From positions 1 through 17,065 of the IMG/VR virus record IMGVR_UViG_2582580934_000003: DNA of 17,065 nucleotides; one strand, written 5' to 3'. Of the stretch, positions 1-17,065 are shown piece after piece; the first letter of the stretch is position 1; each line of letters begins with the position of its first letter. A program made the position numbers and the translations under genes. Below the pieces are notes generated by a model. The model saw only the letters and a program-made list of their open reading frames with translations, searched no databases and was not told the origin of the DNA. This DNA is from a virus (taxonomy: Duplodnaviria; Heunggongvirae; Uroviricota; Caudoviricetes).

Positions 1-62
1 AAGTCCTCACTATATAAAGATATTCAGTGATGAGATAAATAATCAGTTTATTAATAACGATA

Positions 63-425: not shown

Positions 426-473
426 TTTGCTGCTCCTCATCATATCGACCCTGCAAGGTCGGTTGGTTTCTCC

Positions 474-1052: not shown

Positions 1053-1091
1053 TTGCGCATTATGCAAGTGTTTTTATTGCGAGATATGCAA
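1053..1091. promoter_or_regulatory. Two operator-like 15-mers TTGC-N7-GCAA (1053-1067, 1077-1091), candidate OL
   Basis: ttgcgcattatgcaa and ttgcgagatatgcaa spaced 24 bp apart; the same TTGCG/CGCAA half-sites recur in the cI-cro intergenic region. Confidence 0.4.
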
Positions 1092-1100
1092 TTTAATGAG

Positions 1101-1126
1101 TAATGAAAAGCCACCTTCGGGTGGCT
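1101..1126 (-). terminator. Terminator hairpin downstream of cI (AGCCACC-UUCG-GGUGGCU)
   Basis: Perfect 7-bp stem with UUCG loop at 1109-1126, about 20 nt beyond the cI stop, followed on the minus strand by UUUCAUU. Confidence 0.55.
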
Positions 1127-1146
1127 AATTGATGAGGAGGTAAGGG

Positions 1147-1839: not shown

Positions 1840-1859
1840 GCGTTTATTACATTTCTTTA

Positions 1860-1922
1860 TTGCGCGTTAAGCAAATCAACTTGCGCAAAATATTTGCGTG
1901 AAATAATATGCTCATCACGCAA
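1860..1922. promoter_or_regulatory. oR-like operator/promoter region between cI and cro (TTGCG half-site repeats; candidate pR -35 TTGCGC 1881-1886 / -10 TAATAT 1904-1909)
   Basis: ttgcgcgttaagcaa (1860-1874), ttgcgcaaaa (1881-), and inverted pair ttgcgtga / tcacgcaa (1895-1902 / 1915-1922). GGAGG RBS at 1928-1932 before cro ATG at 1937. Confidence 0.5.
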
Positions 1923-1936
1923 TATGTGGAGGTTAT

Positions 1937-2197
1937 ATGCAATCACCATTACGGAATGTGCGTAAGGCGCACGGATTTACTTTGCAGCATGTTGCTGCTG
2001 GCGTTCAGGTCAATCCAGCGACGCTGAGTCGTATTGAAAGACTGGAACAAATTCCATCTATCGATCTTGCAGAACGTCTGGCCAATTTTTTTAAGGGTGA
2101 AATCAGCGAAATGCAGATTCTTTATCCGGCACGTTTTCAATCTAGCCAAAACCAGAATGGGTTTAAACCACAGGAACAGGAGGTAAGCCGTGGGTAA
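1937..2197 (+). CDS. Cro-like HTH (XRE-family) regulator
   Basis: 86 aa, HTH motif (FTLQHVAAGVQVNPATLSRIE), GGAGG RBS, divergent from cI. Confidence 0.8.
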   Translation: MQSPLRNVRKAHGFTLQHVAAGVQVNPATLSRIERLEQIPSIDLAERLANFFKGEISEMQILYPARFQSSQNQNGFKPQEQEVSRG

Positions 2198-2741
2198 TCA
2201 TCACTGGAAAGTGGAAAAACAGCCTGAGTGGTACGTGAAAGCTGTCAGAAAAACTATCGCGGCGTTGCCGGGGGGGTACGCTGAAGCTGCTGAGTGGCTG
2301 GATGTAACAGAGAACGCTTTATTCAACCGCCTTCGTGCAGATGGCGATCAGATTTTCCCGCTGGGATGGGCAATGATTTTACAGCGTGCTGCTGGCACTC
2401 ACTACATTGCGGATGCTGTCGCACAGTCTGCTGGTGGGGTGTTTGTATCACTTCCAGAAATTGAGGAAGTAGAGAACGCTGATATCAACCAACGTCTACT
2501 GGAAGTTATTGAACAGATCGGGAGTTACTCAAAGCAGATTCGTTCGGCAATCGAAGACGGGGTAGTGGAGCCACATGAGCAGACAGCAATTAATGATGAG
2601 TTGTATCTGTCGATTTCGAAGCTCCAGGAACATGCGGCACTGGTCTACAAAATTTTCTGCGTTCCAGAAAAGAGTGACGCCCGCGAGTGTGCAGCTCCGG
2701 GCGTCGTGGCGTTTTGTGTCTGTGGAGAAACTAACGCATGA
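2190..2741 (+). CDS. CII-like early regulatory protein (candidate phage CII/CP76 or YdaT-like family)
   Basis: 183 aa, GTG start with AGGAGG 6 nt upstream, overlaps the cro stop by 8 nt. Position after cro matches cII. Family assignment is from memory, not from a search. Confidence 0.65.
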
Positions 2742-3076
2742 ACAGTTTAACAACACACTACCGTCGTTCGCAACTGATTGCGCTTCCTGTACCGGGTGGA
2801 AAAGCGAAGGTGGAGTATTGCTATGCAGTGAATGTACCAGGTGATAGGGAAATTGTAACCCACAGCTTTGCAGAGTGGGCTGTGGGTGATTTCAACCGGC
2901 AGAAGGAGACAGTCCTTTGCGACAAGTTAACCGCTGGTTCAAAGATCACTACGGAGTGCCCGTCAGAGTCATTCGTTGGGAGCCGGAAACACAACGGGTT
3001 ATCTACCTCCGTGAAGGCTATGAACATGAATGCTTCAGTCCGCTCGAACAGTTTCGTCGTAAATTCAGGGAAATAG
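2738..3076 (+). CDS. Hypothetical ORF, start coupled to the cII-like stop (ATGA); C-terminal half is low-complexity and may be out of frame
   Basis: ATG at 2738 overlaps TGA of the upstream gene. The first ~60 aa look protein-like; the remainder is S/T/N-rich and overlaps ORF 2917..3129 in another frame. Confidence 0.3.
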
Positions 3077-3129
3077 AGGTCGGTCATGAGCCTGTTAATG
3101 ACATCCCAGCCCATTGTGATAAATCGTGA
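2917..3129 (+). CDS. Small phage protein (70 aa), TTG start
   Basis: Strong SD GAAGGAGA at 2902-2909, 7 nt before TTG at 2917. Sequence is globular-looking ([24 protein letters not shown]...). Overlaps the replication gene start by 44 nt. Confidence 0.45.
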
Positions 3130-4078
3130 TCTTGCATGCCGTATTGGTCTGAATGAGGCAATTGTGTTGCAGCAGCTTCATTACTGGCTGAATGAAACGA
3201 ATTCAGGCACTGAGCATGGCGGAATTCGCTGGGTTTATAACACGACAGAACAGTGGCTGGAGCAGTTTCCGTTCTGGTCAGAGTCCACTCTGAAACGCAC
3301 ATTTGCAAGCCTGAAATCACTTGGGGTTTTGCGTCGCGAGCAACTCAATAAATCGAAGCGTGACATGACCAACTTCTACACGATCAACTATGAAAGTGAG
3401 CTTTTAGAAGAGGTCAAAGTGAACGAATCCATCAGGTCAAAATGCACTTCTCCATCGGGTCAAAGTGACCTGATGGATGAGCGCAAAATGACACGATCCA
3501 TTGGTTCAAAACGACACGCTGTCATCGGGTCAAAATGGCCCAATGATCTTACAGAGAATACAACAGAGATTACTACAGAGAATAAAACCTCTTCTCGTCC
3601 GGACGCTTCGCAACCGGACACGCAGATGGCTGAACAGGATTTTTTAACTCGCCATCCTGATGCGGTTGTATTCAGCCCTAAAAAGCGCCAGTGGGGAACG
3701 CAGGATGATTTGACCTGCGCACAGTGGCTCTGGAAAAAAATCATCGCTCTGTACGAGCAGGCCGCCGAATGTGACGGCGAAGTGGTACGTCCTAAAGAAC
3801 CGAACTGGACAGCCTGGGCAAACGAAATTCGCCTGATGTGTGTACAGGATGGGCGTACTCACAAACAAATCTGCGAGATGTACAGCCGCGTCAGCCGCGA
3901 TCCGTTCTGGTGCCGTAACGTGCTCAGCCCGTCGAAGCTGCGGGAAAAATGGGATGAGCTTTCCCTGCGCTTATCGCCGTCCGTCAGCACGTACACAGAA
4001 AAACGCGAAGATCCGTACTTCAAAGCCAGTTACGACAACGTGGACTACAGCCAGATCCCGGCAGGATTCAGGGGGTGA
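3086..4078 (+). CDS. Phage replication initiation protein (lambda O-like replisome organiser) with internal origin
   Basis: 330 aa; N-terminal region typical of phage replication initiators, and the central coding region carries iterons as in lambda O/ori. Confidence 0.8.
   Translation: MSLLMTSQPIVINRDLACRIGLNEAIVLQQLHYWLNETNSGTEHGGIRWVYNTTEQWLEQFPFWSESTLKRTFASLKSLGVLRREQLNKSKRDMTNFYTINYESELLEEVKVNESIRSKCTSPSGQSDLMDERKMTRSIGSKRHAVIGSKWPNDLTENTTEITTENKTSSRPDASQPDTQMAEQDFLTRHPDAVVFSPKKRQWGTQDDLTCAQWLWKKIIALYEQAAECDGEVVRPKEPNWTAWANEIRLMCVQDGRTHKQICEMYSRVSRDPFWCRNVLSPSKLREKWDELSLRLSPSVSTYTEKREDPYFKASYDNVDYSQIPAGFRG
3431..3583. repeat. Candidate replication origin: five ~14-bp iterons at ~23-bp spacing (3431, 3454, 3477, 3500, 3524) followed by an A-rich region with three ACAGAGA(A/T)T repeats (3551-3583)
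   Basis: atcaggtcaaaatg, atcgggtcaaagtg, atgagcgcaaaatg (degenerate), attggttcaaaacg, atcgggtcaaaatg, then acagagaat / acagagat / acagagaat at 12-bp period. Confidence 0.7.
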
Positions 4079-4080
4079 TC

Positions 4081-4173
4081 ATGAGTCTTTTGAATGAAGT
4101 TCAGAAATTCATTGAAGCCCATCCGGGGTGTACTTCCGGAGACATTGCGGATGCTTTTTACGTGGGGGCTTAA
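4081..4173 (+). CDS. Small ORF (30 aa, MSLLNEVQKFIEAHPGCTSGDIADAFYVGA), coupled to both neighbours; possibly a gene remnant
   Basis: ATG 2 nt after the replication gene stop; its TAA overlaps the methyltransferase ATG (TAATG). Below the ORF-track size cutoff. Confidence 0.3.
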   Translation: MSLLNEVQKFIEAHPGCTSGDIADAFYVGA

Positions 4174-4826
4174 TGAGTAATAAATATTGTCAGGCGCTGG
4201 TGGAGCTGCGGAACAAACCATCCCATGAACTGAAGGAGGTGGGCGATCAGTGGCGCACGCCGGACAGCATTTTCTGGGGAATTAACACCTTGTTTGGCCC
4301 GTTTGTTCTGGATCTGTTCACTGACGGTGATAACGCCAAATGTGCCGCGTATTACACGGCGGAAGACAACGCGCTGGCGCATGACTGGTCAGAACGCCTT
4401 GCGGAGCTTAAAGGTGCTGCCTTTGGCAATCCCCCATACAGTCGCGCCAGTCAGCATGAGGGGCAATACATCACCGGCATGCGTTACATCATGAAACATG
4501 CCAGTGCCATGCGTGATAAGGGCGGGCGCTATGTTTTCCTGATCAAAGCTGCCACCAGCGAAGTGTGGTGGCCGGAAGATGCGGACCATATTGCTTTTAT
4601 TCGCGGGCGTATTGGTTTTGAACTGCCTGCCTGGTTTATCCCGAAAGATGAGAAGCAGGTGCCGACAGGCGCTTTCTTCGCTGGTGCTATTGCTGTTTTT
4701 GACAAGACCTGGAAGGGACCGGCAATCAGCTACATCGGGCGCGATGAACTTGAGGCATGTGGTGAGGCCTTTCTGGCGCAGGTTCGCCAGCAGGCAGAAA
4801 AACTGGTCAGGGAGATGGTGGCATGA
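4173..4826 (+). CDS. Phage Dam-type DNA N6-adenine methyltransferase
   Basis: NPPY motif (AAFGNPPYS); size and position in the nin-like region are typical of lambdoid prophage Dam. Start taken at ATG 4173 (MSNKYCQ) rather than the track start 4128. Confidence 0.8.
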   Translation: MSNKYCQALVELRNKPSHELKEVGDQWRTPDSIFWGINTLFGPFVLDLFTDGDNAKCAAYYTAEDNALAHDWSERLAELKGAAFGNPPYSRASQHEGQYITGMRYIMKHASAMRDKGGRYVFLIKAATSEVWWPEDADHIAFIRGRIGFELPAWFIPKDEKQVPTGAFFAGAIAVFDKTWKGPAISYIGRDELEACGEAFLAQVRQQAEKLVREMVA

Positions 4827-5212
4827 AGCTGATCCTGCCTTTTCCGCCCAGCGTGAACACGTACTGGCGACACCCCAACAAAGGGGCGTTTGCTGGTAAG
4901 AGCCTGATAAGCGCGGCGGGGCGCAAATTCCAGAGCGCGGCGTGTGCAGCAATAGTTGAGCAGTTACGTCGTCTGCCAAAACCAACGTCGGCACCTGCTT
5001 CAGTGGAGATTGTGTTGTTTCCTCCGGATAACCGGATCCGCGATCTGGACAACTATAACAAGGCGCTGTTTGACGCCCTGACCCACGCGGGTGTGTGGGA
5101 AGACGACAGTCAGGTGAAAAGAATGCTGGTGGAGTGGGGACCGGTTATCCCGGAAGGGAAGGTCGAGATCACTATCAGTAAGTACGAGAAAACGGCGGGT
5201 GCAGCCGCCTGA
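4823..5212 (+). CDS. rusA: RusA Holliday junction resolvase
   Basis: 129 aa with the conserved DLDN...K...DALT..AG.W.DD pattern of RusA; ATGA overlap with the methyltransferase stop. Confidence 0.85.
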   Translation: MKLILPFPPSVNTYWRHPNKGAFAGKSLISAAGRKFQSAACAAIVEQLRRLPKPTSAPASVEIVLFPPDNRIRDLDNYNKALFDALTHAGVWEDDSQVKRMLVEWGPVIPEGKVEITISKYEKTAGAAA

Positions 5213-5231
5213 TCAAGAGGAGAAACGAAGT

Positions 5232-6041
5232 ATGAATAATCTGATGGTCATTGATGGTATTGAAGTTCGTCGTGATGCTTATGGGCGTTACAGCCTGAAC
5301 GATCTGCATCGCGCAGCAGTAGCATCTGGTGCAAATGCCAGAACCAAGGAGCCAGGAAAGTTTCTTTCCAGCCAACAAACTGTTGAACTTGTTCATGAAT
5401 TGACCAACACCCAGAATTTGGGTGTTGACCCGGTGAGTGTGATTCATGGGGGAAATGAACGGGGAACGTATGTCTGCAAAGAACTGGTGTATGCCTATGC
5501 AATGTGGATCAGCCCGTCATTCCATCTGAAGGTGATCCGTACTTTCGACATGGTAACCAGCGCACCGGAAAAATTATCCGGACAGGCTGCTGACAAGATG
5601 CAGGCTGGTGTGATTCTGCTGGACTTTATGCGCCGGGAATTAAACCTGTCTAACTCTTCAGTGCTTGGTGCCTGCCAGAAACTCCAGGAGGCTGTTGGCT
5701 TACCGAATCTGGCACCGCGCTATGCCATTGATGCTCCTGCTGATGCACACGATGGCTCAAGTCGCCCCACGCTGTCGCTGAGTGCACTGCTGAGGCAGTA
5801 TGGTATCCGCCTGACGGCTAATCAGGCATATCACCAGATGGTGACGCTGGGGATCGTTGAACAACGCGAACGATACAGCCGTACCGCGATTAACAACATC
5901 AAAAAATTCTGGTCGCTGACGGCGAAAGGCTGCATGTTCGGCAAGAACATCACCAGTCCTGCAAATCCGCGCGAGACGCAGCCGCATTTCTTCGAATCCC
6001 GATTCCCTGAGCTGTTAAAGCTGCTCGATACCGTTCATTGA
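5232..6041 (+). CDS. KilA-N domain protein (Roi/antirepressor-like)
   Basis: N-terminal KilA-N-like region (MNNLMVIDGIEVRRDAYGRYSLNDLHRA...). Start at ATG 5232 with RBS AAGAGGAGA. Confidence 0.75.
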   Translation: MNNLMVIDGIEVRRDAYGRYSLNDLHRAAVASGANARTKEPGKFLSSQQTVELVHELTNTQNLGVDPVSVIHGGNERGTYVCKELVYAYAMWISPSFHLKVIRTFDMVTSAPEKLSGQAADKMQAGVILLDFMRRELNLSNSSVLGACQKLQEAVGLPNLAPRYAIDAPADAHDGSSRPTLSLSALLRQYGIRLTANQAYHQMVTLGIVEQRERYSRTAINNIKKFWSLTAKGCMFGKNITSPANPRETQPHFFESRFPELLKLLDTVH

Positions 6042-6042
6042 G

Positions 6043-7038
6043 GTGACCGTGAGAGCACTACTGACCCCTGAAATTGCCCCGCGTATGGGGATTGTATTGT
6101 TCAGGCCAGGTTCAGAGCTGATGCCCCTGTTTATGCAGGGGCGTGTCCTGCTGGAGCCTGAGCCGGAACGTTATTCATCTTTCGCCAGTGGTGCCGTTCC
6201 GGCGGCATCACAACCGCTGGCGGATGATCCTGCCGTTCGGGCCGTGTTCCGCAATGAGGCAGTGATCCGTCGTGCTGGTGGCGTGGAATGTCTTGAAAGC
6301 TGGTTACTTCGTGAAAAGGGCTGTCAGTGGCCTCATTCCGACTGGCACAGCGAGAACATGACCACAATGCGGCACGCTCCGGGAGCAATTCGTCTGTGCT
6401 GGCACTGCGATAACCAGCTGCGTGACCAGTTCACGGAACGGCTGGAATCAATGGCAACGGATAACTGTGCCCGCTGGGTGTTGTCTGTCGTGCGTCGGGA
6501 TCTCGGTTTTGATGACAGTCACGTTGTGACAATGCCGGAACTGTGCTGGTGGCTGGTTCGTAATGATTTGGCGGATGCCTTACCGGAAAGTGCAGCCCGT
6601 AAGGCACTGAGATTACCGAAGCCTGTTGTGCCATCTGTCACCCGGGAAAGTGACCTTGTGCCTTCGGTTCCTGCCACCAGCATCATCCAGGATAAAGCGA
6701 AAAAGGTGCTGGCGCTGAAAGTGGATCCGGAGTCGCCGGAGTCTTTTATGTTACGCCCCAAACGTCGCCGCTGGGTTAATGAAAAGTACACGCGCTGGGT
6801 TAAGACGCAGCCGTGCGCATGTTGTGGAAAGCCAGCTGATGATTCCCACCACCTGATAGGCCACGGTCAGGGTGGAATGGGTACAAAAGCGCATGATCTC
6901 TTTGTGTTGCCTTTGTGCAGAAAGCATCACGACGAGCTGCATGCGGATACCGTGACATTTGAAGAGAAGTATGGCTCCCAACTGGAGCTGATATTTCGTT
7001 TTATCGATCGTGCGCTGGCAATTGGCGTACTGGCGTAA
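6043..7038 (+). CDS. DUF968 (YdfU-like) protein with C-terminal HNH-type Cys/His motif
   Basis: 331 aa; C-terminus CACCGKPADDSHHLIGHG...LPLCRKHHDELH. Start is ambiguous between GTG 6043 and GTG 6049. Confidence 0.75.
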   Translation: MTVRALLTPEIAPRMGIVLFRPGSELMPLFMQGRVLLEPEPERYSSFASGAVPAASQPLADDPAVRAVFRNEAVIRRAGGVECLESWLLREKGCQWPHSDWHSENMTTMRHAPGAIRLCWHCDNQLRDQFTERLESMATDNCARWVLSVVRRDLGFDDSHVVTMPELCWWLVRNDLADALPESAARKALRLPKPVVPSVTRESDLVPSVPATSIIQDKAKKVLALKVDPESPESFMLRPKRRRWVNEKYTRWVKTQPCACCGKPADDSHHLIGHGQGGMGTKAHDLFVLPLCRKHHDELHADTVTFEEKYGSQLELIFRFIDRALAIGVLA

Positions 7039-7051
7039 GTGGAGAACGAGC

Positions 7052-7804
7052 ATGAACCTTGAAGCCTTACCAAAATATTACTCCCCAAAATCTCCAAAAT
7101 TGAGTGATGCCGCACCGGCGACAGGCTCAGGTGGTTTAACGATTACGGATGTGATGGCTGCGCAGGGGATGGTGCAGTCGAAAGCACCGCTTGGGTTTGC
7201 CTTATTCCTGGCAAAAGCTGGCGTTCAGGATCCTCAGTTTGCGATTGAAGGTCTGCTCAATTACGCGATGGCACTGGATAACCCGACATTGAACAAATTG
7301 AGTGAAGAAATCCGGTTACAGATCATCCCTTACCTTGTGAGTTTTGCCTTTGCTGATTATTCCAGGTCTGCGGCAAGTAAGGCTCGCTGTGAGCCTTGTG
7401 CTGGTACTGGATTTCATAATGTATTGCGCGAAGTGGTGAAATACTCCAGAAGCGGGGAGTCTGTTATCAAGGAAGAGTGGGTGAAGGAACTATGTCAGCA
7501 TTGTCATGGTAAGGGAGAAGTCAGCACAGCGTGCAGAGGGTGTAAGGGTAAAGGTATTGTCCTGGATGAAAAAAGGACCCGGCTTCATGGCGCGCCTGTT
7601 TATAAGATTTGTGGGCGTTGCAATGGAAACCGGTTTAGTCGTTTACCAACGACACTGGCGCGGTGTCATGTCCAGAAGCTGGTACCAGACCTGACTGATT
7701 ATCAGTGGTACAAAGGATATGCAGATGTCATTGATAAACTGGTTACAAAGTGCTGGCAGGAAGAAGCATATGCTGAGGTGCAATTAAGAAAAGTGACGAG
7801 ATAA
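7052..7804 (+). CDS. quuQ: Late-gene antiterminator Q (Q82/QuuQ-type, multiple CxxC zinc motifs)
   Basis: Start at ATG 7052 (RBS GGAGAA); several CxxC pairs; immediately upstream of a strong promoter and terminator (pR'/tR' arrangement). Confidence 0.85.
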   Translation: MNLEALPKYYSPKSPKLSDAAPATGSGGLTITDVMAAQGMVQSKAPLGFALFLAKAGVQDPQFAIEGLLNYAMALDNPTLNKLSEEIRLQIIPYLVSFAFADYSRSAASKARCEPCAGTGFHNVLREVVKYSRSGESVIKEEWVKELCQHCHGKGEVSTACRGCKGKGIVLDEKRTRLHGAPVYKICGRCNGNRFSRLPTTLARCHVQKLVPDLTDYQWYKGYADVIDKLVTKCWQEEAYAEVQLRKVTR

Positions 7805-7835
7805 ATGATTTTCGCCGAAGATGGCGACGTAATGC

Positions 7836-7864
7836 TTGCATTTTTCAAAAAATATGGATAAAAT
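7836..7864 (+). promoter_or_regulatory. Candidate late promoter pR' (-35 TTGCAT 7836-7841, 17-bp spacer, -10 TAAAAT 7859-7864)
   Basis: Near-consensus sigma70 hexamers read directly; position just downstream of Q and ~50 nt upstream of an intrinsic terminator. Confidence 0.6.
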
Positions 7865-7913
7865 TTTTTCAACGATGGGCTTTATATACCCGACGTTAAG
7901 AAAAAGTAGAAAA

Positions 7914-7935
7914 CCCGCTGATGAGCGGGTTTTTG
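7914..7935 (+). terminator. Intrinsic terminator tR' (CCCGCT-GATG-AGCGGG + UUUUU)
   Basis: Perfect 6-bp GC-rich stem with a T5 run at 7930-7934. Confidence 0.7.
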
Positions 7936-8219
7936 TGCTTTAGATAGGGTAATAGAGATGTTGAATCTCATTCCGGGATTCATGTTTATTTACTTATTAT
8001 TTATCGGGTGACTTTGCCTGATGTTTAAAATGTTTTCTTCCAGTACTATGTCCCTAGATACAATGAGTCTGCATATTACATTATTAGCAGAGCTATTACG
8101 GTCAAAGTACAGCATAAGCTTTTAAAGCCAATCAACCAGTCATCAAGACAGACGGGGTTATTCATGAAAACTCTCCATGTTTGATTCGATGGGGCCTGAA
8201 ATTAAAGCTTTAATATAGC

Positions 8220-8432
8220 TCATGAAAGGTAAACATTGGCAGCTGAAGGGCCACGCAGACCATTTATCCGGCAAAATTCCACGCGTAATCCGGTGGTAAT
8301 TTCTTCTGCATCGCGGAGATTGAGCGCTGAAACATGAAGCTGGACATCGATACGACCATCGGATGGGGTGATAAGACCCTTGCCGCTTTTGCCGTCAAAG
8401 GTTTTGACAATTCCTGTCATTTTACGGGACAA
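8220..8432 (-). CDS. cspF: Cold-shock protein, CspF/CspH-like
   Basis: 70 aa [13 protein letters not shown]...[10 protein letters not shown]; cold-shock domain; divergent from cspB as in Qin. Confidence 0.85.
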
Positions 8433-8732
8433 AAAAATTCCTTAATACTGATAACTGGGCGCACTATACACACGTTCCTGAAGAAAGCTATAGTTTTTTG
8501 ATGGGGTTGAAGATGGCTGGATGTCTAAAATAAACATTGCTTCATATGTTCAACTATGCGTTAATGATTGCGTCGGTTTGAAGAACAGACGATATACGAA
8601 GTAGTTTACTAAAGCAGTTCTCATTTCAGGTGTTATTCACTTATTCCTTCTTTGAGTCTCTCCAATTAAGTACGAAGTCGTTTCTGTTATACAAGCCATT
8701 TATGCCGAAAGGCTCAAGTTAAGGAATGTAGA

Positions 8733-8948
8733 ATGTCAAATAAAATGACTGGTTTAGTAAAATGGTTTAACGCTGATAAAGGTTTTGGCTTTATTTCTCC
8801 TGTTGATGGTAGTAAAGATGTGTTTGTGCATTTTTCTGCGATTCAGAATGATAATTTTCGAACCTTGTTTGAAGGTCAAAAGGTTACCTTCTCTGTAGAG
8901 AGTGGTGCTAAAGGTCCTGCAGCAGCAAATGTCATAATTACTGATTAA
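8733..8948 (+). CDS. cspB: Cold-shock protein CspB
   Basis: 71 aa [71 protein letters not shown]; long AT-rich 5' UTR. Confidence 0.9.
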
Positions 8949-9230
8949 AATTCATAGTTTGTCTGTATACGATAACGAAGAAGGCTGATGCCTGAGTGGA
9001 GATACAGACAGAGTGGTGAATATTGGATCTCTTTAATAAATAGTAAGGAGGTCCAATACATGAAACAATGGCCAGCATATTTGGCAATAACTTAATCAGG
9101 AAAAGTATGCTAACCATTGTGGTGAAGTGCAGGTTTGCTGCATGAATAGTTTTACAGCAGAAGCTAACTGCTGGCATAGCAAAACAAAGTGCGTAAGTGG
9201 ATGACTCCCACAAAAAGTACCACAATATTA

Positions 9231-9252
9231 AACCCGCTCAGGCGGGTTTTTT
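9231..9252 (+). terminator. Intrinsic terminator (ACCCGC-UCAG-GCGGGU + U6)
   Basis: Stem 9233-9237 / 9242-9246 followed by tttttt at 9247-9252. Confidence 0.6.
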
Positions 9253-9311
9253 ATTATCTGCTTTAAATATGTTATTAAAATATAAAAAATACTTGTTACG
9301 AATAAAATCAA

Positions 9312-9482
9312 TCAAGCTACAGCTTTAAGATTTGTCTGGAATACTTTGTTGCAATGAGGGCAGATCAAAAGGGCACCTTTTTGTACTCTTGAAAAACTGT
9401 GTTCTGACTCTTGGGTGCAGTTTGGGCAGGAACATTTAACGAGATAATTACGGCGTGATTTTGAGTCTTTACGTTCTGACAT
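9312..9482 (-). CDS. Small zinc-ribbon protein (56 aa, CxxC-N17-CxxC), possibly a YdfK/YnaE-like prophage protein
   Basis: MSERKDSKSRRNYLVKCSCPNC...LICPHCNK. Start taken at the internal ATG (9482), which has an AGGA RBS, instead of the track start 9533. Family name is uncertain. Confidence 0.5.
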   Translation of the reverse strand: MSERKDSKSRRNYLVKCSCPNCTQESEHSFSRVQKGALLICPHCNKVFQTNLKAVA

Positions 9483-9700
9483 AGGCTTTTCCTGTATAAA
9501 TGGCCGTATACAGTACACTAAATATGAAAACATATCTCGTATTATTATTTAATATATGATTTTCTTTTAAAATAATTACCCACATTTTTAATGTGTCTGT
9601 TTTTTAGCGCCGTTGAGAACAACGTTTGCTATAAAAACTAACCCATAGACTCCGATCTTTTCAAACATATTGCACCATCTGTGTACATCGGGGTGAGGAT

Positions 9701-9916
9701 ATGAAATCAATGGATAAGTTAACAACAGGTATCGCCTATGGCACATCGGCTGGTAATGCTGGTTTCTGGGCATTGCAGTTACTCGATAAAGTAACTCCGT
9801 CACAGTGGGCTGCAATCGGTGTGCTGGGTAGTCTGGTTTTTGGCCTGCTGACGTATCTGACAAACCTTTATTTCAAGATTAAAGAAGACAGGCGTAAGGT
9901 TGCGAGAAGAGAGTAA
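9701..9916 (+). CDS. Pinholin (phage 21 S-type class II holin, dual-start motif M1-K-S-M4)
   Basis: 71 aa, two TMDs, [18 protein letters not shown]...; paired downstream with a SAR endolysin. Confidence 0.85.
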
Positions 9917-9920
9917 TCCA

Positions 9921-10472
9921 ATGACACAAGACTATGAACTGGTTGTGAAAGGAGTCCGCAATTTTGAGAATAAAGTGGCGGTAACTGTAGCCTTACGGGA
10001 CAAAAAACGCTTTGACGGTGAAATTTTTGACCTGGACATCTCGCTGGACCGTGTTGAAGGTGCCGCGCTGGAGTTTTATGAGGCAGCAGCCAGAATGAGA
10101 ATCAGACAGGTATTCCTGGATGTTGCTGCCGGGTTATGTGTAGGGGATGAGCAGTCGCCGGAAAAGCGCCCCATAATTTTAGAGGCGCAGAATGTGTGGA
10201 TAACCTACAAAGGAAAGCTACCGGGAAGAATTACTGGTTCTCTGAAGACGCCACCGACGGCATTGCGGTCAGAAAAAGATGATATTGAATCGCCCATTGA
10301 AAAACTGGAGGGCAGCGTCGCTGATCTGAATAAAAAATTGTCGGTGCTGATCCCTTCTGAAGATGAAAAAAAACGCCGCGATGAGCAGTTTGCGGCGTTT
10401 TACGATTATTGCATTGAAGTTACTCGCAGGAATTTTGTGAAGATTTTTGAGGAGGGTAAATCTCTTCAGTAA
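9921..10472 (+). CDS. Hypothetical protein (183 aa) inserted between holin and endolysin; possibly YdfR-like
   Basis: ATG at 9921, 4 nt after the holin stop; protein-like K/E-rich composition. Same strand as the lysis genes. The YdfR suggestion rests on position only. Confidence 0.55.
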   Translation: MTQDYELVVKGVRNFENKVAVTVALRDKKRFDGEIFDLDISLDRVEGAALEFYEAAARMRIRQVFLDVAAGLCVGDEQSPEKRPIILEAQNVWITYKGKLPGRITGSLKTPPTALRSEKDDIESPIEKLEGSVADLNKKLSVLIPSEDEKKRRDEQFAAFYDYCIEVTRRNFVKIFEEGKSLQ

Positions 10473-10680
10473 GCTTAATGGCGGACGCTGCAATTAATTC
10501 AGGAAGGTCCGCAAGGTCATCTGTCAGTGGATATGATGAAAAATCGGCGGCAGTTCTGTTAAGAAGCGCTTTAACTAATTCCTTTTCCTTCTCCGGCAAC
10601 AAGTTGATTAGAGCTACGACTGCTTGCCTGAGTGCGATTAAATCAGCAAAAGTTTGTTTTGGTAGATTTGTGTAATCCAT
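10420..10680 (-). CDS. Hypothetical protein (86 aa), convergent with and overlapping the 3' end of the 183-aa gene by 53 bp
   Basis: ATG at 10680 with SD AGAGGTG 5 nt upstream; helical-looking sequence MDYTNLPKQTFADLIALRQ... Confidence 0.4.
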   Translation of the reverse strand: MDYTNLPKQTFADLIALRQAVVALINLLPEKEKELVKALLNRTAADFSSYPLTDDLADLPELIAASAIKLTEEIYPPQKSSQNSCE

Positions 10681-10793
10681 AGTCACCTCTGTGTTTATCA
10701 GATTGACATCCTCCTCCCGCCAGTGCCCATCACTGGTGAGGTAAGATTTAACATATCCGGGGATTTGAAGCCGATAAATCCTGATAAATATCC

Positions 10794-11821
<1,028 letters not shown>

Positions 11822-12181
11822 ATTAATATTAAATCGGATTATTTTTAGCGCTGAATGTGAAATTTAAATAAAAAGGACTCTTCCATGAGTCAAAATCCTT
11901 GAAATCTTAAGGGTAAGATAAAAGGTCATTAGACAGAATGACACGTTTTATTAATAAATAAAGCTATTGTTTCATTCGTGTGTTTTTCTTTACAAAAGTA
12001 ATCCTTGCTATGGTTGGTTAATCATGCGTTAATGGTGTTCTGGTTTGTTACAAAATTATCTGAAGCAGTCATTGTTATAATTTTATTATTTGTACCTCTT
12101 GAGATTTCCTTGTTGGTTTTTCTCTCTGATATTTTTTTTCGGACCATTCTGCCCAAGGGCTAACTTCTTCAAAAGGTAATA

Positions 12182-12397
12182 ATGATGTTTAACAAAATGA
12201 CTGGTTTAGTGAAATGGTTTAACCCTGAAAAAGGTTTTGGTTTCATCACGCCGAAAGATGGTAGCAAAGATGTGTTTGTGCATTTCTCAGCTATTCAGAG
12301 CAACGATTTCAAAACGTTAACTGAGAATCAGGAAGTCGAATTTGGTATTGAGAACGGACCTAAAGGCCCTGCAGCTGTTCATGTAGTGGCACTTTGA
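12182..12397 (+). CDS. cspI: Cold-shock protein CspI
   Basis: 71 aa ...[67 protein letters not shown]; long AT-rich 5' UTR. Confidence 0.9.
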
Positions 12398-12607
12398 GGT
12401 AGAAAATATTACAAACCATATTCACTTTAGATGCCCGTGTTGCCATGGTTCTCAGTATAGAACATCATCTTTTGATGTTTCTGACAGAAATCCTTTCGGG
12501 GCAAAATGTATCTTTTGTAAATCAATGATGATTACATTTGATAATATTTCACAATACTTAAATGTTAGCCATCTGTCGTTAGATTTAAGAAAGTGAAAAT
12601 GAAGGCT

Positions 12608-12661
12608 CCTTCGGGCGCGTTTTTTGTAAAGCTAACAAATTGTTTCTATTAGCTTATTTCT
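12608..12661. repeat. Direct repeat copy 1 (54 bp, identical to 13278-13331); lacks the left arm of the terminator stem
   Basis: ccttcgggcgcgttttttgtaaagctaacaaattgtttctattagcttatttct, read directly in both places. Confidence 0.85.
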
Positions 12662-12852
12662 GCCCTTGAGCTGCCGTTTTTTTATTCTGTTAGTTGTGAA
12701 ACTGAAGCGATTTAGTCACTATCGATCTCATCAAATATGGCTCGCTTTGAGATATTCCTCAAGTAAAAAAACACCTCTTCCTGCGATTTCTCACAAAAAA
12801 GATTCGTTGACAAAAAGTGACAAAATTATGAGATTCCCATCACACATTTTGA

Positions 12853-13248
<396 letters not shown>

Positions 13249-13273
13249 TCCTTTATATTGAGTGTATCGCCAA

Positions 13274-13295
13274 CGCGCCTTCGGGCGCGTTTTTT
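13274..13295 (+). terminator. raiA intrinsic terminator (CGCGCC-UUCG-GGCGCG + U6)
   Basis: Perfect 6-bp GC stem with UUCG loop and T6; its right arm and T-run form the start of direct repeat copy 2. Confidence 0.75.
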
Positions 13296-13331
13296 GTAAA
13301 GCTAACAAATTGTTTCTATTAGCTTATTTCT
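13278..13331. repeat. Direct repeat copy 2 (54 bp, identical to 12608-12661)
   Basis: Exact 54/54 identity with copy 1; flanking bases differ (12607 t vs 13277 g; 12662 g vs 13332 t). Confidence 0.85.
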
Positions 13332-13399
13332 TATAAACATCCACAAACTGTCCACATCAGTAATGATATACAAGCCCGCAAAAAAATGCGGGCTTTGTC

Positions 13400-14206
13400 T
13401 TATGGAGCCGAAATGGTTGTGGTAATAGTCCCCCGAAGCCGTTGCGCTGCTACCTCAAAATAATGATCACTGGTTTCTATACCAATAAATTTTCGCCCTG
13501 CTTTCAGTGCAGCCACACCCGTTGTCCCTGACCCCATAAAAGGATCAAGGACTGTTCCGCCACTATTCACAGTCCTGACCAGTTCCGCCATTAGTTCTTC
13601 TGGTTTTCCGGTCGGGTGCATTTTCTTTGACGGGATAACCGGGAACGTCATGCAGCCGTCGAACGGACCCGAAGGCGATTTACCTAAATGGCCTTTACTG
13701 CCCCAGACGATGTATTCGCACTGATGCCGGAAATACCCGGTATGGGGTGTTCGTGACCCCCTCCCTTTGTTCCACGCAATAATTCCACGCCATGTAAAAC
13801 CGCTGGCCTGAAACGCATCGGTTAAAGCAGGCAGTTGCCGCCAGTCAGTAAATACCAGGGCATAACCGCCCGGCCTGACTGCGCGGTGTGCCTGTGCCAT
13901 CCATAATTGTGTCCAGTAAGCCCACGAACGGGCATCCATGTTTTCACCCGCAAATTCATCAAAGCGGTGAAGGCTCTCGCCGTTCAGATATTTTGCGTGG
14001 CTGCCCTGGTTGGTGCGTCCGGCCTTGTGTGTCGCGCCCGAACTGTAAGGCGGGTCAGTGATTAAGGCATCAATACTTTCTGGCTCAATCAGCGGCAATA
14101 TTTCCAGCGCATTCCCACGACAGAGCGTGGCATTGTCAGTCTGATAAACCTTAGTGTGTTCCGGTGTATGTGCTGGTTGGTGCTGGATTGCGATCCCCAC
14201 GGTCAT
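13400..14206 (-). CDS. DNA methyltransferase, beta-class amino-MTase (N6-adenine or N4-cytosine)
   Basis: 268 aa; motif IV DPPY (LITDPPYSSG) precedes motif I (VLDPFMGSGTTGVAA), the beta-class order. The start may be GTG at the third codon, which has better SD spacing. Confidence 0.85.
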   Translation of the reverse strand: MTVGIAIQHQPAHTPEHTKVYQTDNATLCRGNALEILPLIEPESIDALITDPPYSSGATHKAGRTNQGSHAKYLNGESLHRFDEFAGENMDARSWAYWTQLWMAQAHRAVRPGGYALVFTDWRQLPALTDAFQASGFTWRGIIAWNKGRGSRTPHTGYFRHQCEYIVWGSKGHLGKSPSGPFDGCMTFPVIPSKKMHPTGKPEELMAELVRTVNSGGTVLDPFMGSGTTGVAALKAGRKFIGIETSDHYFEVAAQRLRGTITTTISAP

Positions 14207-14348
14207 AACTCCTCATGTGTGTGGGGTGCTCGATGGCTCTCGTTATCTGGTTAAGTGTTTTGCAGCGCGGACATTTTATTTCAATGTAGTGAAATGAGGC
14301 GCGGGCAAGTAGTTTGTTGCAATTTTTGCATCGTACATTTTGCGTCAT
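14151..14348 (-). CDS. com: Com-like zinc-finger translational regulator (phage Mu Com family)
   Basis: MTQNVRCKNCNKLLARASFHYIEIKCPRCK: CxxC-N16-CxxC close to Mu Com. ATG at 14348 with SD AAGAGGTG. The 3' end overlaps the methyltransferase start by ~55 nt. Confidence 0.7.
   Translation of the reverse strand: MTQNVRCKNCNKLLARASFHYIEIKCPRCKTLNQITRAIEHPTHMRSYDRGDRNPAPTSTYTGTH
14195..14226 (-). promoter_or_regulatory. Stem-loop sequestering the methyltransferase SD and start codon (mom-like translation initiation region)
   Basis: On the mRNA, CCCCAC (plus 14221-14226) pairs with GUGGGG (plus 14195-14200), enclosing GAGGAG and the AUG at 14204-14206. Confidence 0.45.
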
Positions 14349-14385
14349 TTGCGGCACCTCTTGTGTGGTTACTGCTGCCGATATG

Positions 14386-14436
14386 ATAACAAATCGATCG
14401 TTTTTATCGATCGGATTTATTGCATCGATCTGTTAT
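14386..14436. promoter_or_regulatory. Symmetric operator-like element upstream of com: three ATCGATC repeats (each with a GATC) inside a 13-bp imperfect inverted repeat
   Basis: ATCGATC at 14393-14399, 14406-14412, 14424-14430; arms ataacaaatcgat (14386-14398) and atcgatctgttat (14424-14436) match 12/13 as reverse complements. Confidence 0.5.
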
Positions 14437-14486
14437 GCCTATTGCTTATGTATGGTGCCCTCATTTGTGAGGGTAGCAAAAAGAAA

Positions 14487-14518
14487 ACCCGCAGTTTTTA
14501 CGCTGCGGGTTTGTTGTT
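14487..14518. terminator. Bidirectional intrinsic terminator (ACCCGCAG / CUGCGGGU, T-runs on both sides)
   Basis: 8-bp stem 14487-14494 / 14503-14510, TTTGTTGTT downstream on plus and TTTCTTTTTG downstream on minus. Confidence 0.5.
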
Positions 14519-14566
14519 CATGTCTGTGAGATAGGGTGCCGTTTCGACCAACCTTAGCAACCGATT

Positions 14567-14899
14567 GACGGGGGATTACCCCCCCCGTCGCGGTTATCTT
14601 ACTTATTACATAGTAAGAATGCCGCAATTTCCGTGCCAGCAAACCTGAATCGTAACTCGCACGGTGATGTGTGGAGGATCCAGATTATCGCTACCGCAGT
14701 TATGCAAAGTAACAGGGTTTTTAACGGAATTTGCGTCATAACGCTTGTCTCCTGAGAGGAGAGGCGCTAACCTTCTACTTGCGAAGGTAAGAAGTGTTAG
14801 GGCCTCGGTTAAACAGAAATGTTTTCCGGGGCCTTTCCACATCTGGCCTTCGGGTATTCCCTCCGACCATCAGCCGAAAGGCACCCGCGCGTAATCTAT
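14567..14899. other. Highly structured non-coding region between ogr and the com promoter (candidate sRNA and/or prophage attachment-site remnant)
   Basis: Hairpins at 14567-14589 (GACGGGGG / CCCCCGTC), 14597-14618 (TCTTACT / AGTAAGA), 14749-14761 and 14801-14833 (13 bp with a GAAA loop), then a T6 run at 14893-14898. No credible ORF. Confidence 0.4.
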
Positions 14900-14930
14900 C
14901 GCTTTTTTGTTACTCCGGCAATTCTGCCTG

Positions 14931-15191
14931 TTAATTCTGAGATAAAGGCAAACTCATCTGATTGTTTCCCCTGTGTGAAGCTGGCAGATCATGCCACGGG
15001 ATACCTTCTGAAGAGTGAACGCCGGAGGCGTGTTTTGATGTGAATTTATGGAAAGCTTCCAGTGTTGAGAAGCATACGCCGCATTCCAGGTTGTTACACT
15101 GGTAATACTTTTGCCGCACGGTGTTTGAATCATTTTCCGGACGACTGGTGCGGATACGGGCAGATGCGCCACAAAGCGGACAACGGAACAT
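14931..15191 (-). CDS. ogr: Ogr/Delta-family zinc-finger late transcription activator (P2 Ogr-like)
   Basis: MFRCPLCGASARIRTSR...YYQCNNLECGVCF: the CxxC...CxxC signature of Ogr. Strong SD GGGAGG. Directly downstream of a gene D homologue, as in P2. Confidence 0.85.
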   Translation of the reverse strand: MFRCPLCGASARIRTSRPENDSNTVRQKYYQCNNLECGVCFSTLEAFHKFTSKHASGVHSSEGIPWHDLPASHRGNNQMSLPLSQN

Positions 15192-15233
15192 AGCGACCTC
15201 CCTTAACGTGGTGCTGCCGCTATTCTAAGTTGC

Positions 15234-16343
15234 TCACTCTGTTTCCGCTATCCATTCCGGGATTTTTGCCTCAAGCTCAAGCTGCGTGGTAAAGCCGCTG
15301 TTATCAATGGTGTGCTCGGCTTTCGCAATAATCCAGTCCTGATTATCAATCTCGCTTTTAAATCCTGTTACCGTGCCATGCATTTCGGGGTAGAGTTCTG
15401 CGCGTCCGCGTGCCAGTGTGATGGAGAATGATGCGGCTCCGCGTTGTAGTTGTTGCCACTTTGCCGCCGCTGCGCGTCTTGCTGCCTGCTCGTTCTGATA
15501 AGTCTTGCGTAACACAAACACATTGCCTTCCGCGCCTTCCATATAATCACCTTCACGGCTGCTGCTTTTCTCTTTTTTCGGTTTTGGCGGTTTGCGGCGT
15601 TTCACGCTGACTTTTTTCTTTTTCCCGTAATTAAGATCAAGCCAGTAAGCGCGTACCCCCGTATACGCCTCGCGGTCAGCAATGCGGAACTGATGGCGAT
15701 CGCCGCTGCTGCGTGTGATGGCGAACGATGGCAACGGCTGGCCCTGTGCGTTCACGCCACCGCCGGGCATGATGAATAACAGATTACCGCTTTTTACCGT
15801 GGTGATTGCGCCCAGCATTTCCGCCATGCGCGTAAGGAAGGACATGTCGCTTTCTTCGGTCTGGTCGGCGTGGTCGATTTCAATATCCATCAGCATTTCG
15901 CTGATTTGCGGTTTCAGGCCGTATCGGTGAGCAATTGCAGACACCACGCGTTCAACGGTCACATCATGCCAGGATACTTCGCGCTTGACGTTAAATTCAT
16001 CCCGAAAATCTGCGCTTCTGGCTGAAATGGTCAGTCTGTCGGGCGGTCCTTCATGAGCAATTTCATCAACAATGTAAGTGCCTTTTTCTGTCAGCGGTTC
16101 TCCTTTCCAGCCAATGAGAACCGTCAGGCGCGCGCCCCGTGGCGGTAGCTGCAACTGACCATCCGCATCATCCAGCGTGATGGTGAGCTGGTCCGCTTCA
16201 AATCCCCGGTTGTCGGTCAGTGACAGGCTCATCAGGCGCTCTGCCACGCCGGACAGCGTTTCCCCCTCCGCGAGAATATCAAAATCCGGCATTTTCACGG
16301 GGTCTGTGCCCTGACTGAGCAATTGTATGGTGGTGTCGGTCAT
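15234..16343 (-). CDS. P2 gpD-like tail protein (phage late control gene D family)
   Basis: 369 aa from ATG 16343 (SD AGGGAGGG); size and position immediately upstream of ogr match P2 D. Has an unusual Lys-rich linker (KKKKVSVKRRKPPKPKKEK). Confidence 0.7.
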   Translation of the reverse strand: MTDTTIQLLSQGTDPVKMPDFDILAEGETLSGVAERLMSLSLTDNRGFEADQLTITLDDADGQLQLPPRGARLTVLIGWKGEPLTEKGTYIVDEIAHEGPPDRLTISARSADFRDEFNVKREVSWHDVTVERVVSAIAHRYGLKPQISEMLMDIEIDHADQTEESDMSFLTRMAEMLGAITTVKSGNLLFIMPGGGVNAQGQPLPSFAITRSSGDRHQFRIADREAYTGVRAYWLDLNYGKKKKVSVKRRKPPKPKKEKSSSREGDYMEGAEGNVFVLRKTYQNEQAARRAAAAKWQQLQRGAASFSITLARGRAELYPEMHGTVTGFKSEIDNQDWIIAKAEHTIDNSGFTTQLELEAKIPEWIAETE

Positions 16344-16499
16344 CTTTCCCTCCCTGTGCAGCATGGTCGCATGTGCGTGCGGAGGGGGTTACTGCTTTTT
16401 GTTGTCGCCGTGGCGGGAGAACGGCGCGGGGGTGAGATTACGCGCGTGGTGGGTGATGATTGTTGCCGAATCATTTAACGGATACAAGGGGCTGAAGCT

Positions 16500-17065
16500 A
16501 TGAGTGAAACTCGTTTTCATGGTGCCCGTGTTACGGAAAGTACCGACCTGGTAACAGCGATTAATGATGTTGATTCCAGTGTTATCGGTATCGTGGCAAC
16601 GGCGGATGATGCGGATGCGGAGCTGTTCCCGCTGAACAAGCCCACACTGCTGACCCGCGTCAATGACGTGCTGGGAAAATGCGGAACAACGGGGACGCTT
16701 TATCGTGCGCTTAAGGCCATCGCAGACCAGGTGAGCACAAAGGTGATCGTCGTTCGCGTGGCTGAACACAAAGAAGAAGACGGAAAAACGCAGGATCAAC
16801 TGGTTATCGGTGGTTCTGAATCTGACGGCAGCTATACGGGGATGTATGCGCTGCTTGTTGCAGAGCAGGATGAAAGCATCGGATACCGTCCGCGTATTCT
16901 GGCCGCGCCGGAGCTGGACACGGAGGCGGTAACAAAATCCCTGTGCGTGATTGCGGGTAAACTGCGCGCGTTTGTGTATGCCTCATGTCACGGCTGTAAC
17001 ACGATGGCTGAGGCGATTACCTACCGCCAGAAATTCAACGAACGTGAGGTGATGCTCTTATGGCC
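16500..17065 (+). CDS. P2 FI-like contractile tail sheath protein, 5' partial (runs off the window end)
   Basis: Not in the ORF track because it has no stop in the window. Translation from ATG 16500: MSETRFHGARVTESTDLVTAINDVDSSVIGIVATADDADAELFPLNKPTLLTRVNDV...KLRAFVYASCHGCNTMAEAITYRQKFNEREVMLLW, resembling the P2 FI N-terminus. The minus-strand track ORFs 16389..16799 and 16804..16986 are antisense to it. Confidence 0.85.
   Translation, partial: MSETRFHGARVTESTDLVTAINDVDSSVIGIVATADDADAELFPLNKPTLLTRVNDVLGKCGTTGTLYRALKAIADQVSTKVIVVRVAEHKEEDGKTQDQLVIGGSESDGSYTGMYALLVAEQDESIGYRPRILAAPELDTEAVTKSLCVIAGKLRAFVYASCHGCNTMAEAITYRQKFNEREVMLLW

Follow-up and report, generated by a model that had tools for sequence, protein, structure and literature searches.

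Among the closest described relatives of the locus considered here is the com-mom operon of phage Mu, in which Com binds the messenger RNA (mRNA) and activates translation of the gene for the DNA-modifying enzyme Mom. Com binds a 19-mer, the GAAUGCCUGCGAGCAUCCCAC part of the Mu transcript, and the complementary strands UCCCAC and GUGGGA form a translation-inhibition structure, with the GUG start codon of mom in its 3' arm (PMC6483171). The bipartite Com motif derived by SELEX is NGAGNNCC(N)2-3GAGNNCCNN; its functional core, CC(N)2-3GAG, is held within a six-nucleotide loop closed by a C-G pair (PMC6483171). GATC sites in Mu mediate Dam-methylation-sensitive repression by OxyR (PMC7549136, PMC3378877). 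RNA binding, translational activation and Dam/OxyR control have been established experimentally only for Mu or for the Com of H. sputorum. In FluMu (HI1522.1/Hin1523), Pnm1 (NMA1821) and B3, a Com homologue directly precedes or overlaps an adenine methyltransferase in the position of mom, and putative Com sites have been described at hin1523, at the 5' end of the enzyme gene (PMC3299994). Hia5, Hin1523 and Nma1821 are non-specific N6-methyladenine (m6A) enzymes that are silent in lysogens (PMC3299994); for Pseudomonas phage B3, com and the adenine methyltransferase gene are annotated as ORF47 and ORF48. P2-like phages are represented as well: in Burkholderia phage KS5, gp21, a 'Com translational regulator', overlaps gp20, an 'N-4/N-6 DNA methylase' (PMC3091744), and gp05/gp04 of Stenotrophomonas phage Smp131 are annotated as a pair of Com and N6_N4 methylase. 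The pairing of Com with a methyltransferase has been described or annotated since 2002-2012, P2-like phages included; com partners are not discussed in recent Mom papers.

Here, a module of this kind is analysed in a stretch of 17,065 nucleotides of viral DNA (IMG/VR record IMGVR_UViG_2582580934_000003, positions 1 to 17,065; referred to as the window), in which com and a DNA methyltransferase gene overlap on the minus strand. The module is likely to represent an operon of the Mu com-mom type that consists of two genes, is phage-borne and self-contained, and has Com as the gate on a beta-class (DPPY, probably N6-adenine) DNA methyltransferase. The computed evidence comprises the protein families, the presence and uniqueness of a Com motif, the stability of an inhibitory hairpin, conservation, homology to several elements of Mu, and purifying selection on the enzyme.

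Com and the methyltransferase

The com gene (14348..14151, minus strand) runs from an ATG at 14348 to a stop codon at 14151, is preceded by the Shine-Dalgarno (SD) sequence AAGAGG 8 nucleotides 5' of the ATG, and encodes a zinc ribbon of 65 residues with C7, C10, C26 and C29. The N-terminal four-cysteine signature, RCKNCNKLL ... EIKCPRCK, is typical of the Com family. The protein matches the Pfam family Zn_ribbon_Com, PF10122 (E=9.5e-12; 44.6 bits, with a gathering cutoff of 22.9), and the PHROG 'gpCom control of modification' (E=2e-17), and it is 60% identical to Mu Com across 42 residues. The Com-type zinc-finger open reading frame (ORF) that the original prediction had placed over the 5' end of the methylase gene is borne out by these profile searches; its finger spacing, given there as CxxC-N16-CxxC, is that of Mu, and the finger of the window is one residue shorter (CxxC-N15-CxxC). 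Across 25 Com homologues, the one from the window and 24 others, R6, C7, C10, K12, L13, L14, E23, C26, R28, C29 and K30 are invariant. A search of the PDB found no solved Com-like protein, only marginal matches to eS27 zinc ribbons. The NCBI Prokaryotic Genome Annotation Pipeline (PGAP) and RefSeq name com homologues (e.g. WP_001353016.1) 'Com family DNA-binding transcriptional regulator', a label that is probably wrong for the family, since characterised Com is an RNA-binding translational activator.

The second gene (14200 or 14206..13400, minus strand) encodes 266 residues from a GUG or 268 residues from an ATG, and it overlaps com by 50 nucleotides from GUG 14200 or by 56 from ATG 14206. 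As originally proposed, the product belongs to the beta class of amino DNA methyltransferases: the 268-residue protein matches Pfam N6_N4_Mtase, PF01555, at E=2.1e-33, and the DPPY motif (TDPPYSSG, residues 50-57) precedes the FxGxG motif (DPFMGSGTT, residues ~221-229), the order that defines this class. Across 39 homologues, no variation is seen in D, P, P and Y or in the F.GS motif. An AlphaFold (AF2) model (predicted local distance difference test score, pLDDT, 84.5; predicted template modelling score, pTM, 0.86; the part after DPPY is of low confidence) matches CcrM, M.BceJIV, M1.HpyAVI, N4CMT, PvuII, MboIIA and RsrI with E values of 1e-12 to 1e-17. A DPPY motif favours N6-adenine as the methylated base, and m6A is the probable product of the window enzyme, judging by this motif. 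The ratio of nonsynonymous to synonymous substitution rates (dN/dS) against eight relatives is 0.04-0.18, and the gene is under purifying selection. NCBIfam holds no curated equivalog for the enzyme, all matches falling far under the cutoffs. Nor does it belong with Hia5, Hin1523 and Nma1821: ORFs of the H. influenzae and H. sputorum type form a separate blastp cluster that is unlinked to it at E<=1e-5. A connection with M.EcoGII was considered and set aside; that enzyme has 349 residues and resides on a different prophage, and its paper does not mention com.

The initiation region of the methyltransferase gene

Directly 5' of a hairpin over the methyltransferase initiation region lies a match to the bipartite Com motif, GAGAGCC-AUC-GAGCACC (14225..14241, minus strand), within the sequence C-GAGAGCC-AUC-GAGCACC-CC at 14242-14223. 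This is the sole strict match when both strands of the 17-kb window are taken together, as compared with 0.04 expected. By homology with Mu, this element would form a small Com hairpin, GAGC/CAUCGA/GCAC (14239-14226), which presents CC-N3-GAG in a loop closed by a C-G pair. It abuts the predicted translation-inhibition hairpin (14195..14226, minus strand), in which an outer stem pairs CCCCAC (14226-14221) with GUGGGG (14200-14195), an inner helix pairs CAUGA with UUAUG, and the GGAG SD sequence (14212-14209) occupies the tetraloop. AUG 14206 is contained in the inner helix and GUG 14200 in the outer stem. The earlier claim that the SD sequence and the start of the methylase gene are enclosed in a stem-loop of six base pairs has thus held up for GGAG and both candidate starts, all within 14226..14195. 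Folded alone, the hairpin has a predicted free energy of -13.2 kcal/mol (z=-2.5; 3 of 200 shuffled sequences equal it), and the six outer pairs have a probability of at least 0.99 in mRNA contexts of 61 to 237 nucleotides. Rfam contains no family that covers the Com site or the hairpin, at gathering thresholds or at E<=1.

Relatives of the cassette carry the same architecture in front of different enzymes. Com proteins 64-83% identical to that of the window precede three enzyme types: N6_N4 methyltransferases, found in P2-like contexts with D, ogr and hok (loci L088, L090 and L091) and as a beta-class enzyme in Salmonella (L086); a C5 cytosine methyltransferase in Citrobacter (L006); and Mom in a non-P2, lambdoid-like context in E. 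coli (L084/85). The outer stem is retained in 13/13 enteric relatives, with 98.7% of cells paired and the outermost pair being C-G, U-A or U.G; the positions that vary in the hairpin are synonymous in both overlapping frames, and pairing is still preserved. One nucleotide, C14226, is common to both helices, as the last of the Com hairpin and the first of the inhibitory stem. This base covaries with both of its alternative partners (C with G/G in the P2 type, U with A/A in the Mu type), and such a three-way co-change is what a switch between two helices would predict. A side observation concerns the variable, disordered tail of Com, in which the peptide EHPT stands out as conserved in the Com alignment. 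Its codons, GAG-CAY-CCN-AC (14231-14221 in the window), double as the latter half of the Com RNA motif together with the 5' arm of the inhibitory stem; constraint on the RNA rather than on the protein probably accounts for the conservation.

PGAP and RefSeq start the methyltransferase at ATG 14206. Several points argue that the true start is probably GUG 14200, as in Mu: (i) GGAG is 8 nucleotides from the in-frame GUG and 2 from the ATG, the distance in Mu being 7; (ii) the GUG is kept in 13/13 enteric relatives, whereas the ATG is missing in L088, L086, L084 and L006; (iii) read from the GUG of the 3' arm, the frame stays open in every relative tested, irrespective of the enzyme that follows; and (iv) several gene callers choose the GUG, and the representative (P0029) of the 90%-identity cluster, with 1486 member sequences, begins MGIAIQ. 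Among L086, L006 and L084, most segments of 15 nucleotides are ~80-100% identical from com through the GUG, and similarity becomes random within 15-30 nucleotides after it. Since identity drops in this manner just beyond the start, the regulatory cassette, including the first codons, appears to be exchanged as a unit; it is found in P2-like, lambdoid-like and Mu-like contexts.

Other com loci, the transcription unit and the prophage setting

A scan with a Com profile, at one genome per species, gave 171 loci; 80 were retrieved and 62 non-redundant ones classified, the ORF that overlaps or follows com being assigned by Pfam and blastp clustering. In most of the 62, com lies directly upstream of, or overlaps, the gene of a DNA-modification enzyme: a D12/Dam-like adenine methyltransferase in 35/62, a beta-class N6_N4 methyltransferase in 7/62, a Hin1523-like enzyme in another 7/62, Mom in 4/62, a C5 cytosine methyltransferase in 3/62 and a Neisseria-specific group in 2/62. 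Among Com partners, Mom is the exception and methyltransferases are the rule. The original prediction had regarded a 'different enzyme' under Com control as unusual, which is not supported, methyltransferases being the majority partner and the pairing already described; the analysis extends that prediction by four elements, namely the boundaries of the unit, its GATC array, the Com site and the GUG start.

The bipartite motif follows the codons of the second CxxC in 32/66 com loci by the strict pattern and in 55/66 by a relaxed one, with a background of 0.0004-0.002 per 130 nucleotides. In the predicted folds of unrelated junctions, too, the SD sequence or the start codon is paired with a strand adjoining or overlapping the Com motif, as in Acinetobacter (CUUACCUG/CAGGUAAG), Vreelandella (GCCACGAG...CUCGUGGC) and Pseudoalteromonas (GCGUCAC/GUGACGC). 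In 34 diverse loci, the unpaired probability of the start codon is 0.19 for the enzyme and 0.45 for com (p=7e-4), and the probability that a helix extending beyond the SD sequence on its 5' side encloses the start is 0.86 for the enzyme and 0.39 for com (p=1e-5). The minimum free energy of 80-nucleotide junctions has a mean z of -1.66 against shuffled sequences and of only -0.47 against genomic controls, and is weak evidence alone.

The com-methyltransferase unit of the window is bracketed by terminators on both sides. Its 5' boundary is a strong intrinsic terminator at the end of the upstream hok/sok unit (14485..14512, minus strand), with a stem of 10 base pairs, 6 of them GC, and a T-rich tail; its 3' boundary is a terminator-like GC hairpin (13372..13395, minus strand) 5 nucleotides past the methyltransferase stop codon, which is phage-borne and conserved in Escherichia phage Chuche (see below). 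Between the 5' terminator and com, a triple GATCGAT array (14396..14430, minus strand) is homologous to the Mu mom promoter region: its GATC-to-GATC gaps of 14 and 9 nucleotides are identical to those of the three sites upstream of Mu com, and it holds 3/6 GATCGAT of the window. Loci L004, L088, L091 and L011 have the full array as well; L006, L084 and L086 have the 9-nucleotide pair. A predicted sigma-70 promoter (14383..14410, minus strand; -35 TCGATA, extended -10 TGtTATCAT) overlaps GATC sites 2 and 3; it is the sole promoter-like match in 13250-15250, would start transcription at ~14376, and its TTTGnTATCATAT box is kept in the P2-type relatives L004, L005, L088, L090 and L091. The T-run, the TAAGAT -10 element and the C-activator site of Mu are absent downstream of the window array in an alignment with Mu. 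An Ogr-dependent late promoter was considered and rejected, as the Ogr-type box TGT-N12-ACA has two matches in the window, neither of them upstream of com and one inside com (14256-14273). On this sequence evidence, dependence of the com operon on C or Ogr is not indicated; by analogy with Mu, a Dam/OxyR input is plausible.

The module is annotated in 186/5426 complete E. coli genomes, at least 125 of these copies being at the raiA junction. The isolated Escherichia phage Chuche (PP925824) carries the same module, annotated as 'gpCom control of modification' and 'DNA methyltransferase'. In Chuche and the RefSeq E. coli raiA prophages, the module is 97-98% identical to that of the window in nucleotide sequence and has the same neighbours D, ogr and hok; Chuche differs from the window in its integrase/att module and in the last 5-10 residues at the C terminus of the enzyme. 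Similarity to Chuche breaks off at 13437, but an attachment site crossed by the 3' end of the methyltransferase gene was ruled out, host DNA ending at ~13297; the divergence past 13437 is local, because the stop codon and the terminator hairpin are present in Chuche. In strain OkiPb01715, the module is part of a largely complete P2-like prophage with tail, baseplate and lysis genes, and in ETEC4069 it is part of a truncated remnant. The setting had originally been called a P2-like remnant next to ogr: the P2-like character stands; ogr does not adjoin the module, a hok/sok-type locus lying between; and whether the prophage is a remnant cannot be judged from the window, the module being found in the fuller prophage of OkiPb01715. 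The intervening hok/mok/sok-type toxin-antitoxin locus (14599-14739 and 14728-14886, both minus strand) includes a Hok-like ORF of 46 residues, relatives of which are annotated 'Hok/Gef' or 'MokW-like'; its Rfam match to sok is sub-threshold (47.4 bits, with a gathering score of 59; E=4.6e-9).

Only the raiA segment (12907-13297) is host DNA shared by every E. coli, so that raiA has a prophage on either side. Positions 1-12626 of the window are a lambdoid prophage with DUF968, KilA-N, a Q antiterminator and an XRE regulator, and they match E. coli PCP06101 at 99.8% identity. The 5' untranslated region of the cspA thermoregulator (RF01766) is matched twice over its full length (8572-9011 and 12027-12443, both plus strand; 160 and 105 bits), which indicates two cold-shock-protein paralogues in or near this lambdoid part.

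Several com loci of the survey have peculiarities of their own. In 18 non-enteric Mu-like loci (L009, L015, L016, L018, L052, L069, L075, L014, L056, L078, L061, L070, L076, L051, L049, L024, L082 and L044), a conserved element of ~110 nucleotides lies directly upstream of com, within an aligned region of ~140 nucleotides (alignment A6). It begins with a hairpin in which 8/8 predicted pairs show compensatory changes, and another hairpin (CACAG..CUGUG or GCAG..CUGC), the box CCAAGGC, a palindrome rich in GC and a box resembling TCTATCA follow in this order. Rfam has no match for the element, and the window lacks it; it could serve as a structured leader, or as a late promoter that includes an operator for an activator. 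Locus L005 (NZ_JBQPOM010000071.1, 'Vagococcus sp. WN89Y') is an enterobacterial com-methyltransferase module with a Com ~92% identical to that of the window, and it has lost two of the three GATC sites through a deletion between repeats; its attribution to the Gram-positive Vagococcus is probably due to contamination or misassignment. The draft genome of Methylophaga thiooxydans DMS010 holds at least 12 near-identical loci of com and a Dam-like gene (L015, L022, L028-L037), many at contig ends, which suggests a multi-copy transposable Mu-like prophage or an assembly repeat. Finally, L090 (E. coli GCA_031392255.1) has lost all three GATC sites, carries P27Q beside the third cysteine, and has the 5' arm of the inhibitory stem shifted by one base; it may be a decaying copy.

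Proposed mechanism, alternatives and known systems

By analogy with Mu, we infer the functional steps at the window locus, together with its promoter, GUG start, methylated base and anti-restriction role, as follows: The promoter overlapping the triple-GATC array would produce a bicistronic com-methyltransferase mRNA, from which com is translated freely. On the naked mRNA, the methyltransferase would not be initiated, GGAG and GUG 14200 (also AUG 14206) being locked in the hairpin of -13 kcal/mol. Com would then bind the CC-AUC-GAG loop of the small hairpin that abuts this lock, with the single nucleotide C14226 in common, and bound Com would destabilise the locking hairpin and expose the initiation region. 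The methyltransferase may subsequently modify phage DNA after replication, with host DNA as an incidental target, and thereby protect the progeny against restriction in the host infected next. Such a double lock would hold a potentially harmful enzyme off at low levels of transcript or of Com. The original idea of a Mu-type Com switch that gates the methylase is supported by every computational test run, i.e., protein family, unique Com motif, hairpin homology and GATC array.

A number of points weigh against this mechanism. In a context of 81 nucleotides, the hairpin has a z of only -1.9, 10 of 200 shuffled sequences fold as well, and its energy is only modestly unusual; the energy is, therefore, not compelling alone, and the hairpin appears convincing through its position and ancestry instead. 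As for the covariation in the enteric set, it reflects in essence a single evolutionary event. The Com hairpin consists of three Watson-Crick pairs and an internal A.A mismatch, which makes it weaker than AUGC/CUGCGA/GCAU of Mu, and RNAfold favours another weak hairpin of 3 base pairs over it. The first accessibility measure applied to the 34 loci, the mean unpaired probability from SD sequence to start, did not separate enzyme from com starts (0.47 and 0.48), because residues in a loop count as unpaired; both discriminating measures were chosen post hoc after this one had failed, and the 34 loci are not phylogenetically independent. The window promoter differs from that of Mu in lacking the T-run, TAAGAT and the C site. 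Experiments on the E. coli or P2-like com-methyltransferase module did not turn up in literature searches. Lastly, coupling in cis could play a part, since the hairpin lies in the path of the ribosomes that translate com.

One alternative retains the switch and changes its purpose: as an orphan enzyme, the methyltransferase would act in lysogens and exert epigenetic control over host or prophage genes, possibly in a phase-variable manner through Dam/OxyR at the GATC array. The sigma-70-like, seemingly activator-independent promoter, the missing Ogr-type TGT-N12-ACA box upstream, the overlap of the GATC array with the -35 element and spacer, reminiscent of Dam/OxyR switch layouts, and the persistence of the module in a truncated remnant would all suit such a role. 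However, studied Com-gated enzymes such as Hia5 and Hin1523 are silent in lysogens, the module is also present in complete prophages and in a virion-forming phage, and four unrelated families of DNA-modifying enzymes on one cassette fit generic protection of phage DNA better than a specific target; an epigenetic role is considered unlikely.

The main rival to the switch itself is translational coupling in cis: ribosomes on the 3' third of com (to 14151) would unwind the hairpin at 14226-14195 and let GUG or AUG initiate, with Com dispensable or serving another role. Overlapping gene pairs are commonly coupled, and with an overlap of 50-56 nucleotides between com and the methyltransferase start, every ribosome translating com must melt the hairpin. 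Yet Mu shares this geometry, and there Com, which binds the mRNA, is described as indispensable for the translation of mom (PMC6483171, PMC3378877); moreover, pure coupling would not need the motif found beside com in 55/66 loci. In view of the Mu precedent and the conservation of the motif, coupling as the whole explanation is disfavoured and seems rather improbable.

It is very improbable that a defective prophage carries the module as inert, decaying cargo, with the hairpin a by-product of coding constraints. Some strains do retain only a prophage fragment, and L090 lacks its GATC sites and carries P27Q and a shifted 5' arm, but in the records whose annotation was listed both ORFs are intact and annotated as coding sequences, with no pseudogene flag, 186 E. 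coli genomes and an isolated phage, Chuche, keep the module, dN/dS is as low as 0.04-0.18, and hairpin positions vary synonymously in both frames with pairing preserved. Hardly credible, finally, is a Com that regulates the operon by binding DNA, with the hairpin incidental: zinc ribbons can bind DNA and PGAP labels Com accordingly, but characterised members bind an RNA hairpin loop with CC(N)2-3GAG, the conserved cis element is inside the transcript at the enzyme initiation region and not at the promoter, and diverse com loci have mutually unrelated upstream regions while the downstream motif is constant.

A Com-operated lock on translation, thus preferred, may be part of a broader picture, which we put forward tentatively, as a possibility with less in its favour than the switch: GATC array, promoter, com, Com site, hairpin and the first codons, GUG-GGG, would constitute a portable 'safety-catch' cassette that recombines in frame with unrelated DNA-modifying enzymes. 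The compact window enzyme, poor in target recognition domain, would be an adenine methyltransferase with a short motif or near-non-specific; the double lock would follow from its being toxic, as in the cases of Hia5 and M.EcoGII, and the GATC array over the promoter would bring about Dam/OxyR control, possibly with heritable ON and OFF states. That roughly 3% of E. coli genomes carry the methyltransferase gene should not be taken to mean that methylation is constitutive. The locus offers an E. coli-native, genetically tractable Com switch on an ordinary methyltransferase, with an output readable by methylome sequencing; it is convenient for dissecting the opening of the hairpin by Com, a step still without structure, and could show whether a Dam/OxyR GATC array works when it overlaps the promoter.

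Compared with Mu com-mom, the window shares the Com zinc ribbon (60% over 42 residues), the overlap of com with the enzyme gene, three upstream GATC sites with gaps of 14/9, and a Com site (CC-N3-GAG loop) that abuts a (U/C)CCCAC...GUGGG(A/G) hairpin whose loop contains GGAG and whose 3' arm contains GUG: Mu reads GAAUGCCUGCGAGCAUCCCAC-GGAGAAACAUU-GUGGGA and the window GAGAGCCAUCGAGCACCCCAC-ACACAUGAGGAGUUAUGACC-GUGGGG, with GGAG between the arms in both. The differences concern the enzyme (GNAT-like Mom in Mu, a Rossmann-fold beta-class methyltransferase in the window), the hairpin loop (10 nucleotides in Mu, 20 with an inner helix in the window), the Com hairpin, which has an internal mismatch unlike that of Mu, the promoter (weak and C-dependent in Mu, with T-run, TAAGAT and C site; extended -10 and overlapping the GATC array in the window) and the host element, a transposable phage in one case and a P2-like one in the other. 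The Mu-like set of FluMu, Pnm1, Hia5 and B3 resides on transposable Mu-like phages, unlike the P2-like window, and has Dam-related (alpha-type) or divergent Hia5-subfamily enzymes in blastp clusters separate from the window enzyme. KS5 and Smp131 resemble the window in both protein families, in gene order, in the overlap and in phage type (Peduoviridae/P2-like); the papers on these phages do not discuss an RNA switch. Apart from the 37% identity of Smp131 Com to that of the window (tblastn), they are likened to it by family only, and the modules differ in position: between the tail fibre and tail sheath genes in KS5, beside Q in Smp131, and between ogr/hok and attR in the window.

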